A stretch of 64,000 nucleotides of DNA from Escherichia coli. Lineage in GTDB: Bacteria; Pseudomonadota; Gammaproteobacteria; Enterobacterales; Enterobacteriaceae. Both the position numbers and the translations under genes were made by a program. Positions 25,600-51,850 of the stretch are shown here, one piece after another. Numbering within the stretch: the stretch's first letter is position 1; each line of letters opens with the position of its first letter. The stretch lies in the NCBI RefSeq assembly GCF_003790525.1, contig NZ_CP033633.1, one strand, 5' to 3'. The notes beneath the pieces are model-generated. The model saw nothing but the letters and a program-made list of their open reading frames with translations, was not told the origin of the DNA and ran no database searches.

Positions 25600-25720
25600 A
25601 CATGCAGATACCATGCATATCCATATGTTTGGCATCTGCATATGACAGGCATACGCATATCTCACACATCTGCATATCTATAACATATACATATGTATCA
25701 CATCTGCATATACTAAACAT
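25600..25720. repeat. array of ~6 imperfect direct repeats with 17-bp periodicity (ATCTGCATAT-N7)
   Basis: GCATAT cores at 25615, 25638, 25655, 25672, (25689 variant), 25706. Confidence 0.5.
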
Positions 25721-25750
25721 ATATAAAAGCCGTCTTGCCAGGAGGAAGAC

Positions 25751-45202: not shown

Positions 45203-45640
45203 GTGATGAAAACTGAACTGACCCTGAATGTCCTGCAGACCATGAACGCACAGGAATATGAAGATATCCGTGCTGCGGGAAGCGATATGCGCCGTAATCT
45301 CACTCACGAGGTGATGCGTAAAGTGGACGCACCGGCTAACTGGATGATGAATGGCGAGTATGGCAGTGAGTTCGGGGGCTTTTTCCCCGTCCAGGTTCGT
45401 TTCACGCCAGCCCACGAACGTTTCCACCTGGCATTATGTTCGCCGGGAGACGTCTCTCAACTCTGGATGCTGGTTCTGGTGAATGGTGGTGGACAGCCTT
45501 TCGCCGTCGTTCAGGTGCAACATATCTTCACGCCTGTCGCGATCAGTCACACGCTGGCGCTCGCCGCGACACTTGATGCGCAGGGATACAGTGTTAACGA
45601 CATCATTCATATTTTGATGGCAGAAGGAGGTCAGGCATGA
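45203..45640 (+). CDS. psiB: PsiB, plasmid SOS inhibition protein B
   Basis: [27 protein letters not shown]...[10 protein letters not shown], near-identical to F PsiB. Confidence 0.9.
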
Positions 45641-46356
45641 GCGCACGTTCACGGGCACTGATCCCCCTCAGCGCAGAACAACAGGCCGCCATGCAGGCTG
45701 TGGCTGTCACCGAACAACGTCGTCGTCAGGGACGCACACTTTCAGCATGGCCTTATGCCAGCGCTTTCTTTCGCTGCCTGAATGGCAGTCGCCGGATTTC
45801 GCTGACCGATCTCCGCTTTTTTGCCCCTGCGCTGACGAAGGAGGAATTTCATGGCAACCGTCTCCTGTGGCTGGCTGCCGTGGATAAACTGATTGAAAGT
45901 TTTGGTGAAGTCTGTGTTCTTCCCCTGCCATCCGATGCGGGGCATCGTCTGTTCCCGTCTGTTCCTTTTCGTGAAGGTGAGCGTCGTCGTCAGAAAACCA
46001 CGCTGACAGAGCAGAAATACAGCCGCCAGCGGGAACGTGAGGCAGAACGACGGGAACTGGAATACCAGACATGTTTTGCTCAGGCGCAGATTGACCTTGC
46101 GTTTCATACTCCCGCCACGGTCGGAAGCTGGTTGTCCCGCTGGTCTGGTGCTGTTGAGGAGCATGATCTGGAAACGATTTTCTGGGGGTGGTGCGGGCGT
46201 TTTCCGTCACTGTCATCATTTGACCGGTTTTTCTGGCAGGAGGGACCACTCTGGCGGCTGATTTTTGAAGCCGGTGAGGCCGGTCGTGGTGCACCGGTAC
46301 AGGTACGTGCACTTGAGCAGTGGATGATCCCGAACAAGCTGGAGAACGTAATATGA
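45637..46356 (+). CDS. psiA: PsiA, plasmid SOS inhibition protein A
   Basis: 239-aa ORF overlapping psiB stop; [22 protein letters not shown]... Confidence 0.85.
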
Positions 46357-46949
46357 TGAAATCAGACGAAAAATATCAGGTTCCCGTGTGGATGCGACCT
46401 CTGTTGCCGTTGCTCTGCAACACCGGGGGGAACGATCCGGAAGAACTGCTGAATGATACAGCAACCACTGTCAGTGCGAATGTTGTCCGTTATGTACTGA
46501 TAGTTGCTGTGCGGTCGCAGGTTGATCTGCTGCAGATTCTGTACAGGAAAGGGCTGTTGCGCACAGAGATACCAGGTGGCTTTTCACCGGAAGAAGCGCA
46601 GGCACTCCTGGATAATCTGGTGCGCAGCCATATCAGCAGGGCGCTGTCGGGTGAGCGAATGGCAGCCCGTGACAGAAATGCCGATCTGGCCTGGATTCGA
46701 CAGCAACTGGTCGATGCCGCCTGGTTTGTCCGTGCCACACTGGAGGCGCATGGGATGGGCGTCGGAAATGAGAGTCCCCCTGCTCAGCCGGAGACAATGC
46801 CGGACATACAGACACGGGAACTGGTGATGTTGATCAAGCGACTGGCATCATCGCTGAAAGCGGTGAAACCGGACAGTTGTGTGGTGCGTGAAGCGCAGGA
46901 CTGGCTGCGCGACAGAAAACTTGTGAGCATCACGGATGTTCTTCGGTGA
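46353..46949 (+). CDS. hypothetical leading-region protein
   Basis: 198-aa ORF; ATG overlaps psiA stop (ATGA). Confidence 0.5.
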   Translation: MMKSDEKYQVPVWMRPLLPLLCNTGGNDPEELLNDTATTVSANVVRYVLIVAVRSQVDLLQILYRKGLLRTEIPGGFSPEEAQALLDNLVRSHISRALSGERMAARDRNADLAWIRQQLVDAAWFVRATLEAHGMGVGNESPPAQPETMPDIQTRELVMLIKRLASSLKAVKPDSCVVREAQDWLRDRKLVSITDVLR

Positions 46950-48097: not shown

Positions 48098-48640
48098 CTT
48101 CGGCTCCCGGCTGCCTGGCGGCATCCGGTCGTCAGGCCCGACTCCGACAGGCAGCTGCTGGCGCACCCGCCAGTCTCCGCCGAACCCGCTGGCGCGGTTT
48201 CGGGCTGCCGCTACGGTCCGATGTCTGAAAAACCAGGCCTGCAGCGACCGTTCCGGTCGCGCCGCCCCTGTCGCGCCGGAAACGGCGCTCCCTGCACACC
48301 TGACGGTGTGTAAGGCCACTGCGCCTGATGGCGCAGTTGTCTGCCCTTCCGCCGCCACCCCTGCGGCCTGTTTCCCGCTGTGGACTTTCCGGGGGCTGAA
48401 GCGGCCACAACACGTTTCAGCCGTCCAGGGGAGAGATGTACCAGCCACAAAACTTTTTGCCGCAGGCGTCAAAAACTTTTGCGTCTGCCCCCGGACAACT
48501 GCCCCGTGCCGTGGCAGTCGCTGCCCCATCGGAAAGGTCCACTGCGGGGAGAAACCCCGAAGAAGTGGACGGCAGAAGGGGCTTTCGCCCCTCCGGGGAA
48601 TAACCGGTCGGCCCGGCGACCTGATTCAGCAGAAGGAGAC
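48098..48640 (+). repeat. structured non-coding repeat, family B copy 2
   Basis: Paralogue of 41745-42300. Confidence 0.6.
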
Positions 48641-49504: not shown

Positions 49505-50467
49505 GTGAGTAAGAAGAAAACCACCACGACGCCCACGCCGCATGATGCCGCGTTCCGGTCGTTCCTGGCGAACCCCGACGTCGCCAGAGATTTTCTGGAA
49601 CTGCATCTTCCGGCGGAGTACCGGCAGTTGTGCGACCTGTCCACGCTGAAGCTGGAACCCGCCACCTTTGTTGAGCCGGACCTGCATCAGTACGCCAGCG
49701 ATATCCTCTGGAGTGTGAAAACCACCGGGGGTGAAGACGGCTATATTTATACGCTCATCGAGCACCAGAGCACCGAAAATCTGTACATGCCTTTCCGCAT
49801 GTTACGTTACAGTGTGGCGGCGATGCAGAGACATCTGGAGCAGCACAAAACATTGCCACTGGTGATTCCGGTGCTGTTCTATCATGGTGAGCGCAGCCCG
49901 TACCCGTACAGCATGAACTGGCTGGACTGTTTTGAGGATCCGGCGCTTGCGGCTAAAATATACACAAAGCCGTTTCCGCTGGTTGATATCACTGTCGTTG
50001 ATGACAATGAAATCATGAACCATCGCCGGATGGCCGCACTGACGCTGCTGATGAAGCATATCCGCCATCGTGACATGATGGAGCTGCTGGACAAACTCCC
50101 GCAGGTCATGGTGGAAATTTCAGACGAGCAGGTGCGTGTTCTGATTCATTACATCGTTAACGCAGGGGACTCTGTATCACCGGAATTTATGCGGGCGCTG
50201 GCTGAGCGTCTGCCGCAGCATGAGGATAAACTGATGACTATTGCCGAACGTCTTGAGCAGCAAGGAATACAGAAAGGAATACAGCAGGGAATACAGCAGG
50301 GAATACAGCAGGGAATACAGCAGGGAATACAGCAGGGAATACAGAAAGGCCGCATGGAGGAGAAGCAGGATATTGCGCGTCAGCTTCAGAAAACGGGAAT
50401 GCCATCTGCACAAATCTGTCAGATCACCGGACTTTCCGAAGCTGAACTGAAGAACATCACTCACTGA
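49505..50467 (+). CDS. Rpn-family (YhgA-like, PD-(D/E)XK) recombination-promoting nuclease with repeat-containing C-terminal tail
   Basis: GTG start with SD caggagga; N-terminal HDAAFRSFL...DFLELHLP...IEHQS...FRMLRYS motifs; C-terminal GIQ[QK] x7 repeat then conserved tail. Confidence 0.75.
   Translation: MSKKKTTTTPTPHDAAFRSFLANPDVARDFLELHLPAEYRQLCDLSTLKLEPATFVEPDLHQYASDILWSVKTTGGEDGYIYTLIEHQSTENLYMPFRMLRYSVAAMQRHLEQHKTLPLVIPVLFYHGERSPYPYSMNWLDCFEDPALAAKIYTKPFPLVDITVVDDNEIMNHRRMAALTLLMKHIRHRDMMELLDKLPQVMVEISDEQVRVLIHYIVNAGDSVSPEFMRALAERLPQHEDKLMTIAERLEQQGIQKGIQQGIQQGIQQGIQQGIQQGIQKGRMEEKQDIARQLQKTGMPSAQICQITGLSEAELKNITH
50234..50467 (+). CDS. putative intragenic small ORF (RpnS-like) from an internal in-frame SD+ATG within the Rpn gene
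   Basis: gagga-N7-ATG at 50234; product MTIAERLEQQ(GIQx)n...TGLSEAELKNITH parallels the two stand-alone downstream cassettes. Confidence 0.4.
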   Translation: MTIAERLEQQGIQKGIQQGIQQGIQQGIQQGIQQGIQKGRMEEKQDIARQLQKTGMPSAQICQITGLSEAELKNITH

Positions 50468-50475
50468 TGAGAACC

Positions 50476-50506
50476 ACAAAGCCCGGCAAAATGCCGGGTT
50501 TTTTTG
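50476..50506 (+). terminator. hairpin + T-run after the Rpn gene
   Basis: aagcccggcaaaatgccgggttttttt. Confidence 0.6.
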
Positions 50507-50529
50507 TCAGCAGGAGCAGAGCAAACAGT

Positions 50530-50703
50530 ATGACGATTGCAGAACGTCTTGAGCAAAAAGGTCGCCAGGAGGGCAGGATGGAAGGTGCGCTTGAAAAAGC
50601 CCTGGCTATTGCGTGCCAGCTTCAGAAAATGGGGATGACGCCGGAGCAGATTAAGCAGGCTACCGGACTGTCCGAAGCTGAACTGAAAAAAATCATTCAC
50701 TGA
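50530..50703 (+). CDS. stand-alone Rpn C-terminal-tail paralogue (orphan RpnS-like cassette 1)
   Basis: 57 aa MTIAERLEQKGRQEGRMEGALEKALAIACQLQKMGMTPEQIKQATGLSEAELKKIIH; own SD and ATG. Confidence 0.5.
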   Translation: MTIAERLEQKGRQEGRMEGALEKALAIACQLQKMGMTPEQIKQATGLSEAELKKIIH

Positions 50704-50714
50704 TGAGAGCATCA

Positions 50715-50743
50715 CAGCCCGGAAGAATGCCGGGCTTTTTTGC
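50715..50743 (+). terminator. hairpin + T-run after cassette 1
   Basis: cagcccggaagaatgccgggctttttt. Confidence 0.6.
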
Positions 50744-50761
50744 CAGCAGGGGCAGAGCAGT

Positions 50762-50992
50762 ATGACTATTGCAGAACGTCTTATACAGAAAGGTTTCGAC
50801 GAAGGTTTTAAAGAAAGTTTTAAAGAAAGTTTTAAAGAAGGCTTTAAAGAAGGCTTTAAAGAAGGGGCGCTTGAAGTGGCGCGGGAAATAGCCTGCCGGC
50901 TGCGGGATATAGGCTGGCCGCCGGAACGGATTCAGGAGGTCACGGGACTTTCCGGTGAAGAACTGAAAAAGCTGTTTCCTGATGAGCAGTAG
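50762..50992 (+). CDS. stand-alone Rpn C-terminal-tail paralogue (orphan RpnS-like cassette 2) with FKE[SG] repeats
   Basis: 76 aa MTIAERLIQKGFDEGFKESFKESFKEGFKEGFKEGALEVAREIACRLRDIGWPPERIQEVTGLSGEELKKLFPDEQ. Confidence 0.5.
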   Translation: MTIAERLIQKGFDEGFKESFKESFKEGFKEGFKEGALEVAREIACRLRDIGWPPERIQEVTGLSGEELKKLFPDEQ

Positions 50993-51022: not shown

Positions 51023-51274
51023 TCACACATCCTCTGCCGTTTCCCCCAGTTCATTTTCCAGACGCCTGATGATATCTGCCTTACGCATCCCCTGCATGTG
51101 AGGCAGCAGGTCACGGACTGAAAGAGCCTGGGTGGTCCTCCAGACGGTGACGTCCACCTGTTCCGCATTTTCCCAGGCGTGCCATGTTCTCTGCGTCACG
51201 CCAAATTCTCTGGCCGCTTTTTCGCGTGACCAGAGCATGCTTTTTCGCCAGATTCGCAGTTCCCAGCCGGTCAT
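51023..51274 (-). CDS. small putative DNA-binding regulator (HTH-like), antisense to the leading-region block
   Basis: 83-aa ORF; promoter-side intergenic region carries GTGAA-N5-TTCAC palindromes. Confidence 0.4.
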   Translation of the reverse strand: MTGWELRIWRKSMLWSREKAAREFGVTQRTWHAWENAEQVDVTVWRTTQALSVRDLLPHMQGMRKADIIRRLENELGETAEDV

Positions 51275-51469: not shown

Positions 51470-51850
51470 TTTTCTCCGGTCGCGCCGGATGCGGCGCTCC
51501 CTGCACACCTGACGGTGTGTAAGGCCACTGCGCCTGATGGCGCAGCTGTCTCTGCCTGTCTGCCGCCGCACTGCGGCCCGTTCTCCGCAGACGAACTTTC
51601 CGGGGGTACATACACGACCACATCCCGTTTCAGTCGTCCAGGGGAGAGATGTACCAGCCACAAAACTTTTTGCCGCAGGCGTCAAAAACTTTTGCGTCTG
51701 CCCCCGGACAACTGCCCCGTGACGTGGTGAGCGTCCCCCGTCGGAAAGGTCCACTGCGGGGAAATCCCCGAAGACCCGGACGGCAGAAGGAGCTTCGCTC
51801 CTCCGGGAAATGACCTGGCTGACCCGGCAGTCGTGACGATGAGGAGACAA
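51470..51850 (+). repeat. structured non-coding repeat, family B copy 3 (5'-truncated)
   Basis: Collinear with the 3' ~380 bp of 48098-48640. Confidence 0.55.

Follow-up and report, generated by a model that had tools for sequence, protein, structure and literature searches.

What are the in-frame 12-bp tandem repeats that interrupt the 3′ end of a plasmid-borne rpn gene, and why does a small open reading frame (ORF) downstream of it carry a different set of repeats at the same position? The question is raised by the Escherichia coli contig NZ_CP033633.1, from which we analysed a window of 64,000 nucleotides, i.e., the whole stretch of DNA considered here. The rpn locus belongs to the leading region of a conjugative plasmid (IncK2/Z), where it is surrounded by anti-restriction and SOS-inhibition genes, with psiA/ardA on one side and the oriT-relaxase genes on the other. 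The rpn gene, labeled “Rpn family recombination-promoting nuclease” in RefSeq, is followed by two stand-alone ORFs, here called cassettes 1 and 2 (Table 1), the first of which is unannotated in the source RefSeq record.

Table 1. Coordinates of the rpn gene, the two cassettes, their repeat arrays and the neighboring hairpins in the window.
Feature	Position	Strand	Description
rpn (RpnL, 320 aa)	49505..50467	+	N-terminal YhgA-like PD-(D/E)XK nuclease domain, then C-terminal RpnS domain
Predicted intragenic RpnS ORF	50234..50467	+	77 aa, MTIAERLEQQ...
Array 1	50264-50347	+	Seven 12-bp units, GIQK-(GIQQ)5-GIQK; predicted to lie in helix alpha1 of RpnS and RpnL
Intrinsic-terminator-like hairpin 1	50482..50505	+	CCCGGCAAAATGCCGGG then T7, directly 3′ of the rpn stop codon; hairpin scan
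Cassette 1	50530-50703	+	Stand-alone RpnSs-type ORF, 57 aa, GRQE/GRME type
Intrinsic-terminator-like hairpin 2	50716..50742	+	Followed by a T-run, 3′ of cassette 1; 7 pairs, 6 GC
Cassette 2	50762..50992	+	Stand-alone RpnSs-type ORF, 76 aa, FKE type
Array 2	50792-50863	+	Six 12-bp units, GFDE-GFKE-SFKE-SFKE-GFKE-GFKE

In the rpn tail, both the in-frame reading and Tandem Repeats Finder (50258-50344, period 12, 7.2 copies, 96% matches, score 153) agree with the initial annotation, which had placed seven units encoding (GIQ[QK])7 at 50264-50347. The units follow the order GGAATACAGAAA, five times GGAATACAGCAG, and GGAATACAGAAA again when read in frame, and correspond to residues 254-281 of RpnL, or 11-38 of RpnS. 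For cassette 2, five to six units at about 50797-50870 had been proposed, close to the span and number given in Table 1; they make up residues 11-34 of the product, and Tandem Repeats Finder reports them at 50790-50865 (period 12, 6.3 copies, 90% matches, score 103). Both arrays open at residue 11, after MTIAERL[EI]Q[QK], which bears out the claim of an equivalent position in the two proteins. Cassette 1, said to have no expansion, does in fact carry two imperfect units, GRQE-GRME, at 50560-50583, and has up to six in related plasmids. The window contains three tandem-repeat regions, arrays 1 and 2 being two of them, and 100 dinucleotide-preserving shuffles of its whole length yielded a mean of 0.11 arrays of score at least 50, the best reaching 57, so that chance is excluded as the source of the arrays. 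Minus-strand ORFs running over the repeats were dismissed as their by-products.

Where do these repeats fall in the protein? Residues 11-207 of RpnL match Pfam Transposase_31 (PF04754, E=1.3e-78, model positions 1-197 of 203), and the protein scores 192 bits against the Rpn subfamily model NCBIfam TIGR01784, for a cutoff of 52.1. An in-frame internal ATG at 50234, preceded 7 nt upstream by a Shine-Dalgarno sequence, GAGGA, at 50222-50226, is conserved in all relatives; by analogy with the system described in PMC10400941, RpnS would be translated from this start. The tail resembles the crystal structure of RpnA-S (7TH0) with E=1.1e-3 as a single sequence and E=2.5e-8 as a profile. The alignment pairs query residues 1-14 with chain residues 1-14 and query residues 37-73 with chain residues 9-45, and this gap over the array identifies array 1 as an insertion in helix 1. 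Furthermore, an AF2 model of RpnS (pLDDT 84.8) has helices at 3-53, 58-65 and 69-76, the first one continuous through the array, and the top PDB match of this model in Foldseek is 7th0 (probability 1.00, target-normalised TM-score 0.76). In the profile search of the PDB with the tail alignment, the top matches, namely DotG and designed PPR and CAP repeats, were set aside as repeat or low-complexity artefacts, 7TH0 being the sole meaningful full-length match. The repeats had initially been regarded as a linker; the 7TH0 match, the model and the published work (PMC10400941) instead place them, as a structural prediction, inside the long alpha-helix that opens the C-terminal domain of RpnS/Rpn and provides the surface for dimerisation and toxin binding.

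The two cassettes align with the Rpn tail along their entire length, and TIGR01784 recognises the two of them through its C-terminal end (positions 219-273 and 224-273 of 273). Homologues bear the precomputed label PF27070.1. A Pfam-A scan of cassette 2 did not find DUF4351 (PF14261), giving only Yae1_N and weak HTH-like matches; the DUF4351 annotation of RpnSs applies “in some species” only (Zhong et al., 2023; PMC10400941). PADLOC yielded no Rpn model on the locus, and just a weak “putative invertase” match, C3a178, for the tail.

The appearance of Yae1_N deserves a comment. Weak profile matches that span nothing but the repeat segment were obtained to Yae1_N (E=5.7e-5) and to FliH models (1e-5 to 7e-9), far below the family cutoffs. 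The FliH/YscL glycine repeats and the deca-GX3 motif of Yae1/Lto1 (Pfam Yae1_N) have a glycine at every fourth residue, in a helix devoted to protein–protein association. Homology to these families was rejected because the matches are confined to the periodic segment and stay below the curated cutoffs; the likeness is one of periodicity.

A closer precedent exists. Dodecamer repeats have been described in RpnL/RpnS and in the downstream RpnSs of E. coli, where the pairing of toxin and antitoxin depends on the number of units (Zhong et al., PNAS 2023; PMC10400941; see also the commentary, PMC10400984). These repeats start 8-20 residues after the RpnS Met, and when one unit is added to RpnC-S or RpnC-LS, neutralisation is lost except where both proteins have it. 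RpnL toxicity, neutralisation restricted to equal repeat numbers and phage defence are known only for RpnA, RpnB, RpnC and RpnP2 (PMC10400941). The literature since 2023 gave no RpnS/RpnL papers past the original and its commentary. Both the repeat phenomenon and its functional meaning are already published (Zhong et al., 2023). The present locus shares with RpnA-E and the plasmid-encoded RpnP2 (PMC10400941) a YhgA-like nuclease with a small domain of three helices at its C-terminus, an internal MTIAERL start after a Shine-Dalgarno sequence, and 12-bp (4-aa) repeats, made of one hydrophobic residue together with charged residues or glycine, which begin about 10 residues past the Met, in helix 1, and vary in number between strains. 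Unlike in the published systems, the units are GIQQ, GRME and GFKE and the site is the leading region of I-complex plasmids, features that are specific to this locus.

We conclude that the arrays are, very probably, hypervariable four-residue repeats of the Rpn C-terminal domain, within a framework formed by the RpnL/RpnS toxin–antitoxin pair and the stand-alone RpnSs. In such a system, rpn would encode a toxic PD-(D/E)XK nuclease, RpnL, and the start at 50234 would yield a small three-helix RpnS that binds and neutralises it. Each 12-bp unit would add approximately one turn to the long first helix, at the dimer and toxin–antitoxin interface. Encoded by one and the same stretch of sequence, RpnL and RpnS would change together, the repeat number acting as the pairing key, and the downstream cassettes would be stand-alone RpnS-like genes with their own arrays at the matching helix position. 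The translation of RpnS, its antitoxin activity, the length-matched specificity and phage defence would extend to this locus by analogy with the published proteins (Zhong et al., 2023). A comparable arrangement is found in the HsdS subunits of EcoR124I/EcoR124II, where a four-residue in-frame repeat, TAEL, sits in a helical spacer and its copy number (2 vs. 3) alters specificity (cited in PMC10400941). HsdS, however, belongs to another family: in this type I restriction enzyme, TAEL defines the spacing of DNA recognition and not the pairing of a toxin with its antitoxin.

Does the repeat number actually change? Among close plasmid relatives the GIQ array has 3, 5, 6, 7, 8 or 9 units, the FKE array 0-6 and the GRQE/GRME-type array 1-6, and all the observed variants are in frame. 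The expectation that the number may vary between isolates without frame loss thus holds in all three cassettes, the Rpn tail included, and none of the arrays has an equal number everywhere. In three-cassette relatives, whose sequences outside the arrays agree at 98.9-99.7%, every indel measures a multiple of 12 bp and falls within one of the three arrays. Moreover, a single plasmid has the locus twice, the copies being set apart by 1 substitution over 3337 nt and a 24-bp change in the GIQ array (5 vs. 7 units), and the FKE array of the closest lineage passes through 4, 5 and 6 units as SFKE and GFKE units are added. Some assemblers can miscount perfect 12-mer arrays, and these differences might be seen as sequencing or assembly artefacts of a repetitive stretch. 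This idea, whose probability we consider negligible, was rejected because identical alleles recur across independent records, the exact 7-unit allele in 8 plasmid records and other alleles in 10-16 records each; in addition, the differences consist of whole units between otherwise identical flanks, and the 84-bp array is far below the sequencing read length.

The way in which the units change is also informative. All GIQ variants retain GIQK as their first and last unit and show 100% identity among the internal ones, which is the pattern expected from slippage in the interior of the array. Slipped-strand mispairing is a reasonable mechanism, and in-frame gain or loss of units may proceed by replication slippage or by unequal recombination among the near-identical internal units. 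The locus recalls contingency loci and other phase-variable repeats, in which tandem repeats in coding regions change copy number by slippage, but here the 12-bp unit never loses the frame and would modulate the length of a helix instead of producing an ON/OFF switch. Given this unit length, and with all observed variants in frame, the repeats do not behave as a phase-variable ON/OFF locus. Furthermore, clonal plasmid sets have constant numbers (7 units in CP119729, CP119733 and CP119749; 5 in CP080166 and CP080158), which gives no evidence for rates like those of phase variation, and the rate of change may be modest.

No correlation links the number of units in the Rpn tail to that in cassette 2 (Spearman about -0.2, n=15 and n=9). 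It is therefore unlikely that the orphan cassettes act as length-matched partners of the resident RpnL, and this absence of co-variation probably rules out cassette 2 as a length-matched backup antitoxin. The independent, uncorrelated variation of all three arrays would also fit a neutral polymorphism, in which perfect repeats slip, the helix tolerates any length and copy number is irrelevant to specificity, at least for the orphan cassettes. The latter vary as much as the expressed tail, though no promoter was found for them, and cassette 2 also occurs in intact versions with zero units. We nevertheless regard neutrality as unlikely in view of the published effect of a single added unit on RpnC neutralisation, of the G-hydrophobic-x-x periodicity common to three unrelated units (GIQQ, GRME and GFKE), and of the preservation of the ORF, start codon and Shine-Dalgarno-like leader of both cassettes in nearly all the plasmid loci, with one cassette 2 interrupted by an IS91.

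Where do the cassettes come from? In most I-complex plasmids, the actual tail of Rpn is identical to cassette 1 in 55 of the 57 residues of the latter; in plasmids that include L015 (pSa21-TC-CIP), L007 and L010, the RpnS portion of Rpn shows this same identity and an equal repeat number. In the alignment, the leader of cassette 1 differs in one position from the cassette 2 leader of locus L004, its body is close to the GRME-type Rpn tail of locus L013, and hairpin 1 is duplicated after it. Conserved blocks flank every cassette, ATGAC[GT]ATTGCAGAACGTCTT on the 5′ side and GGACTTTCCG...GAACTGAA on the 3′ side. Judging from these alignments, cassette 1 is the usual Rpn tail of I-complex plasmids, moved downstream by unequal crossover; an exchange in the conserved 5′ block very probably joined the GIQ-type tail to the nuclease domain, displacing cassette 1. 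This origin from a displaced native tail is what the present work adds to the published picture. As in the RpnSs already described (ypaA/RpnE-Ss and RpnC-Ss; PMC10400941), for which fusion and deletion variants have been reported, the locus has a small RpnS-like ORF immediately 3′ of rpn, which shows a 4-aa repeat variation of its own; unlike them, it has two different stand-alone cassettes in tandem, the first demonstrably derived from the native tail. The anatomy of the locus, its RpnA-S homology, the predicted helical placement of the array, the copy-number variation and this mosaic structure are directly supported by our data.

The same mosaicism could lead one to see the downstream cassettes mainly as donors from which homologous recombination would replace the Rpn tail, in the style of silent cassettes, with the repeats being incidental. 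Indeed, plasmids share 97.6-100% identity in the nuclease domain whereas GIQ and GRME tails are just ~60% identical, the conserved blocks stand on both sides of every cassette, cassette 1 is a displaced tail, and cases where the rpn N-domain is fused to the rpnSs region have been recorded (Zhong et al., PMC10400941). We consider a pure reservoir rather unlikely, as an ATG of its own, a Shine-Dalgarno-like leader, an intact frame and a preceding terminator are needless for a silent donor; moreover, the RpnE-Ss (YpaA) protein has been experimentally detected (PMC10400941), and cassette 2 does not have the profile of a recent tail.

Cassette 2 is found downstream of rpn in nearly all the related plasmids examined. 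A homologue search with the FKE-type tail among 1.84 billion representatives retrieved 35 matches, 34 of them not Rpn-sized (short proteins of 38-221 aa plus one unrelated protein of 2,910 aa); no close full-length Rpn with an FKE-type tail was found, the sole Rpn-sized match, of 317 aa, being 38% identical. Cassette 2 has thus not been recently used as a tail. While the published RpnSs cluster with the upstream RpnS, cassette 2, by this comparison, belongs to an old lineage of stand-alone genes that lacks a close full-length parent.

The expression of the cassettes is uncertain, because the promoter scan found no sigma-70-like promoter ahead of cassette 1 or cassette 2 and a terminator-like hairpin precedes each of them. 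This bears on what the cassettes might do in trans. RpnSs could confer immunity by neutralising non-resident RpnL, from rival I-complex plasmids or from the recipient cell, with repeat changes re-keying the toxins covered. Such a role would suit anti-defence or plasmid competition in the leading region, near psiA/ardA; it would agree with orphan repeat numbers that do not track the resident tail and with the match of cassette 1, in sequence and repeat number, to the Rpn tails of other plasmids. The uncertain expression argues against it, as does the lack of a full-length FKE-tail Rpn that cassette 2 could target; no mention of Rpn was found in the literature on plasmid leading regions and anti-defence, with 0 occurrences in the leading-region anti-defence paper PMC11541004. 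Trans-acting immunity of this kind seems to us improbable. More improbable still is a re-keyable lock-and-key set made of the entire three-cassette locus, in which RpnL/RpnS would be the lock, the RpnSs would be spare keys against the RpnL of rival I-complex plasmids or recipients early after transfer, the cassettes would serve also as tail donors, and unit changes would re-key the coverage. If this were true, cassette 1 would provide immunity against the common GRQE+GRME Rpn allele.

As already published, these repeats determine the specificity of a toxin–antitoxin defence encoded as a gene within a gene and recognised only recently, which makes their variation biologically meaningful. The I-complex resistance plasmids offer a natural series of this variation, in which there is no indel hot spot other than array length, which changes at a pace similar to that of point mutation. 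In turn, the uncoupling of the orphan repeat numbers from the resident toxin poses a sharper question on the role of the stand-alone RpnSs.

The 64-kb window holds three tandem-repeat regions in all, two of which belong to the rpn locus: the GIQ array of the Rpn tail (Tandem Repeats Finder score 153) and the FKE array of cassette 2 (score 103); 100 dinucleotide-preserving shuffles of the window gave a mean of 0.11 arrays scoring at least 50 and a top score of 57. The initial annotation had placed 12-bp arrays at equivalent positions in the Rpn tail and in cassette 2 and, indeed, both start at residue 11, behind the common N-terminus MTIAERL[EI]Q[QK], with seven and six units, respectively. It had also described cassette 1 as free of expansion, which does not hold, as two imperfect units are present there. 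The third region, made of 17/34-bp units in 2.7-3.9 copies with 74-78% matches, looks iteron-like.

Features of the rpn locus and of other window segments (window coordinates)
Feature	Position	Strand	Description
Array 1 (GIQ)	50264-50347	+	seven 12-bp units, GGAATACAGAAA, 5x GGAATACAGCAG, GGAATACAGAAA; GIQK-(GIQQ)5-GIQK as read in the long ORF 49505-50467
Array 2 (FKE)	50792-50863	+	period 12; GFDE-GFKE-SFKE-SFKE-GFKE-GFKE within the 76-aa ORF 50762-50992
Internal ATG	50234		in frame; opens the final 77 residues of Rpn; GAGGA 7 nt upstream
Cassette 1	50530-50703		intact 57-aa RpnS-like ORF
Cassette 1 units	50560-50583		GRQE-GRME
HTH gene	51023-51274	-	83-aa helix-turn-helix regulator, convergent on cassette 2
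Direct copies	48267-48514; 51476-51727		~250 bp, GC-rich, 95-96% identical, 3.2 kb apart
Third repeat region	25631-25723		17/34-bp units
IS150-family element	about 45378-46747		record 1246-2615; psiA/ardA interval

The window is a 100% match to plasmid NZ_CP029742.1 of E. coli AR_0085, and the host plasmid is conjugative (IncK2/Z, MOBP, MPF_I). The rpn locus lies in its leading region, between psiA/ardA on one side and mobA-relaxase genes on the other; an IS150-family insertion sequence is found in the psiA/ardA interval. The 320-aa product matches the Pfam domain Transposase_31 (YhgA-like) over the full length of the domain (E=1.3e-78) and reaches 192 bits with the NCBIfam Rpn subfamily model TIGR01784 (cutoff 52).

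It has been described that rpn genes constitute toxin–antitoxin systems in which the small protein RpnS is made from an internal translation site, and that four-amino-acid ("dodecamer") repeats, whose number varies widely between strains, occupy the first helix of RpnS from 8-20 residues past the methionine (Zhong et al., PNAS 2023, PMC10400941). Stand-alone RpnS-like genes (RpnSs) downstream of some rpn genes likewise bear repeats in variable number, RpnL is neutralised only by an RpnS of equal repeat number, and the plasmid-borne RpnP2 protects against T-even phages (PMC10400941; the same points are summarised in the commentary PMC10400984). The window arrays are thus an instance of an already published phenomenon, which the initial annotation correctly rediscovered; the feature is real, and its reading is supported save for the word "linker".

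Indeed, against 7TH0, the E. coli RpnA-S crystal structure, the tail gives a two-part alignment (query 1-14 with chain 1-14, query 37-73 with chain 9-45), which makes the array an insertion in the first helix; a profile of 18 tails matches 7TH0 in a single stretch (E=2.5e-8). Furthermore, the AlphaFold model of the tail (pLDDT 84.8), whose top PDB match is 7th0, has an unbroken helix at residues 3-53 spanning the array, followed by two short helices, and the array is therefore predicted to be helical rather than a flexible linker. In all three unit types, glycine and a hydrophobic residue keep fixed places in the four-residue period, which explains weak matches of the repeat segment alone to the Yae1_N and FliH models; we read these as an analogy of periodicity, not as homology.

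Every MTIAERL cassette was translated in 26 related plasmid loci, and the repeat counts differ between them with the frame kept, as had been anticipated. Two types of Rpn tail exist: GRQE/GRME, the same sequence as cassette 1 of the window, in most I-complex plasmids (1 to 6 units), and GIQ in a minority. For the latter, a 321-nt query across the array spans 274, 297, 309, 321, 333 or 345 nt in the records, corresponding to 3, 5, 6, 7, 8 and 9 units, all six counts being backed by translation. Cassette 2 holds anywhere between 0 units (52 aa) and the 6 of the window (76 aa), and its homologues among the best 120 protein clusters carry 2-6 units in several independent orders. The three-cassette architecture is not peculiar to the window, the GIQ-tail/GRME-cassette junction being present in at least 18 PLSDB records, with (GIQ, GRxE, FKE) triplets of 7,2,6 (window), 5,2,5, 7,2,4, 6,1,3, 9,1,3 and 7,1,3.

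Aligned three-cassette loci are 98.9-99.7% identical outside the arrays, and all their indels are multiples of 12 inside one of the three arrays. Moreover, plasmid pF1022-2 (NZ_OY754359.1) has the locus in duplicate; over the 3337 nt compared, one substitution and a single 24-bp indel (5 versus 7 GIQ units) separate the copies, and the plasmid thus encodes two RpnL/RpnS pairs of unequal length. Taken together, the indel pattern and these copies identify the arrays as indel hot spots of the rpn locus, changing at a rate comparable to that of point substitution over about 1.5-3 kb. In this 192-kb plasmid, the copies (94975-96414 and 130638-132101) belong to a doubled leading-region segment and lie 35,663 bp apart. 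Clonal plasmid sets share the same unit number, so there is no sign of phase-variation-like instability. All GIQ alleles keep the first and last GIQK and differ solely in how many perfectly identical GIQQ units lie between them, and in the closest lineage of the window the FKE array has 4, 5 or 6 units through added SFKE and GFKE units; this is the pattern expected of slippage or unequal exchange within the array, from which we infer the mechanism.

As for the origin of the orphan cassettes, cassette 1 has, at the DNA level, the leader (terminator hairpin, CAGCAGGAGCAGAGCAAACAG, ATGACGATTGCAGAACGTCTT) that stands ahead of cassette 2 in L004, a GIQ plasmid with two cassettes, and the body of cassette 1 is the GRME Rpn tail found, for example, in plasmid L013; the nuclease domains of GIQ- and GRME-tailed genes are 97.6-100% identical. 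The simplest history would be an unequal crossover in which the start of cassette 2 of a GIQ plasmid recombined with the start of the Rpn tail of a GRME plasmid through their conserved 21-bp 5′ block, which would yield the order Rpn-GIQ, stand-alone GRME cassette, FKE cassette. For cassette 2, a close full-length parent was not found among the 35 significant representatives out of 1.84 billion: 33 are short proteins (38-221 aa), a 2,910-aa protein is unrelated, and the sole Rpn-sized match (317 aa) is 38% identical. The stand-alone cassette 2 can evidently be lost, an IS91-family element cutting it after 19 codons in one relative, NZ_CP027341.1 (1369-1428).

The unit numbers of the Rpn tail and of cassette 2 show no correlation which, given the published length-matching rule, makes it unlikely that the orphan cassettes act as antitoxins of the resident RpnL. 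They may be legacy copies or donors for recombination, or may confer trans-immunity to other alleles of Rpn. Expression of both cassettes is uncertain, since a terminator-like hairpin precedes each and no promoter-like site was found ahead of either. Annotation of small genes at the locus is inconsistent between records: the source RefSeq record leaves cassette 1 without a CDS, and related records give it as a 74-aa hypothetical protein from an upstream ATG, overlapping the rpn stop codon. Many cassette 2 homologues bear the precomputed Pfam label PF27070.1, not returned by our Pfam-A scan, and a newer family may already cover stand-alone RpnS-like proteins.

Every relative examined keeps the HTH gene beside the rpn locus, except one in which an IS91 takes its place. 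The two direct copies flank the entire module (two small ORFs, rpn, two cassettes and the HTH gene), and, located as they are in the leading region of a conjugative plasmid, they are candidate single-strand promoter/initiation (Frpo/ssi-like) elements which, if so, could drive early expression of the rpn module.
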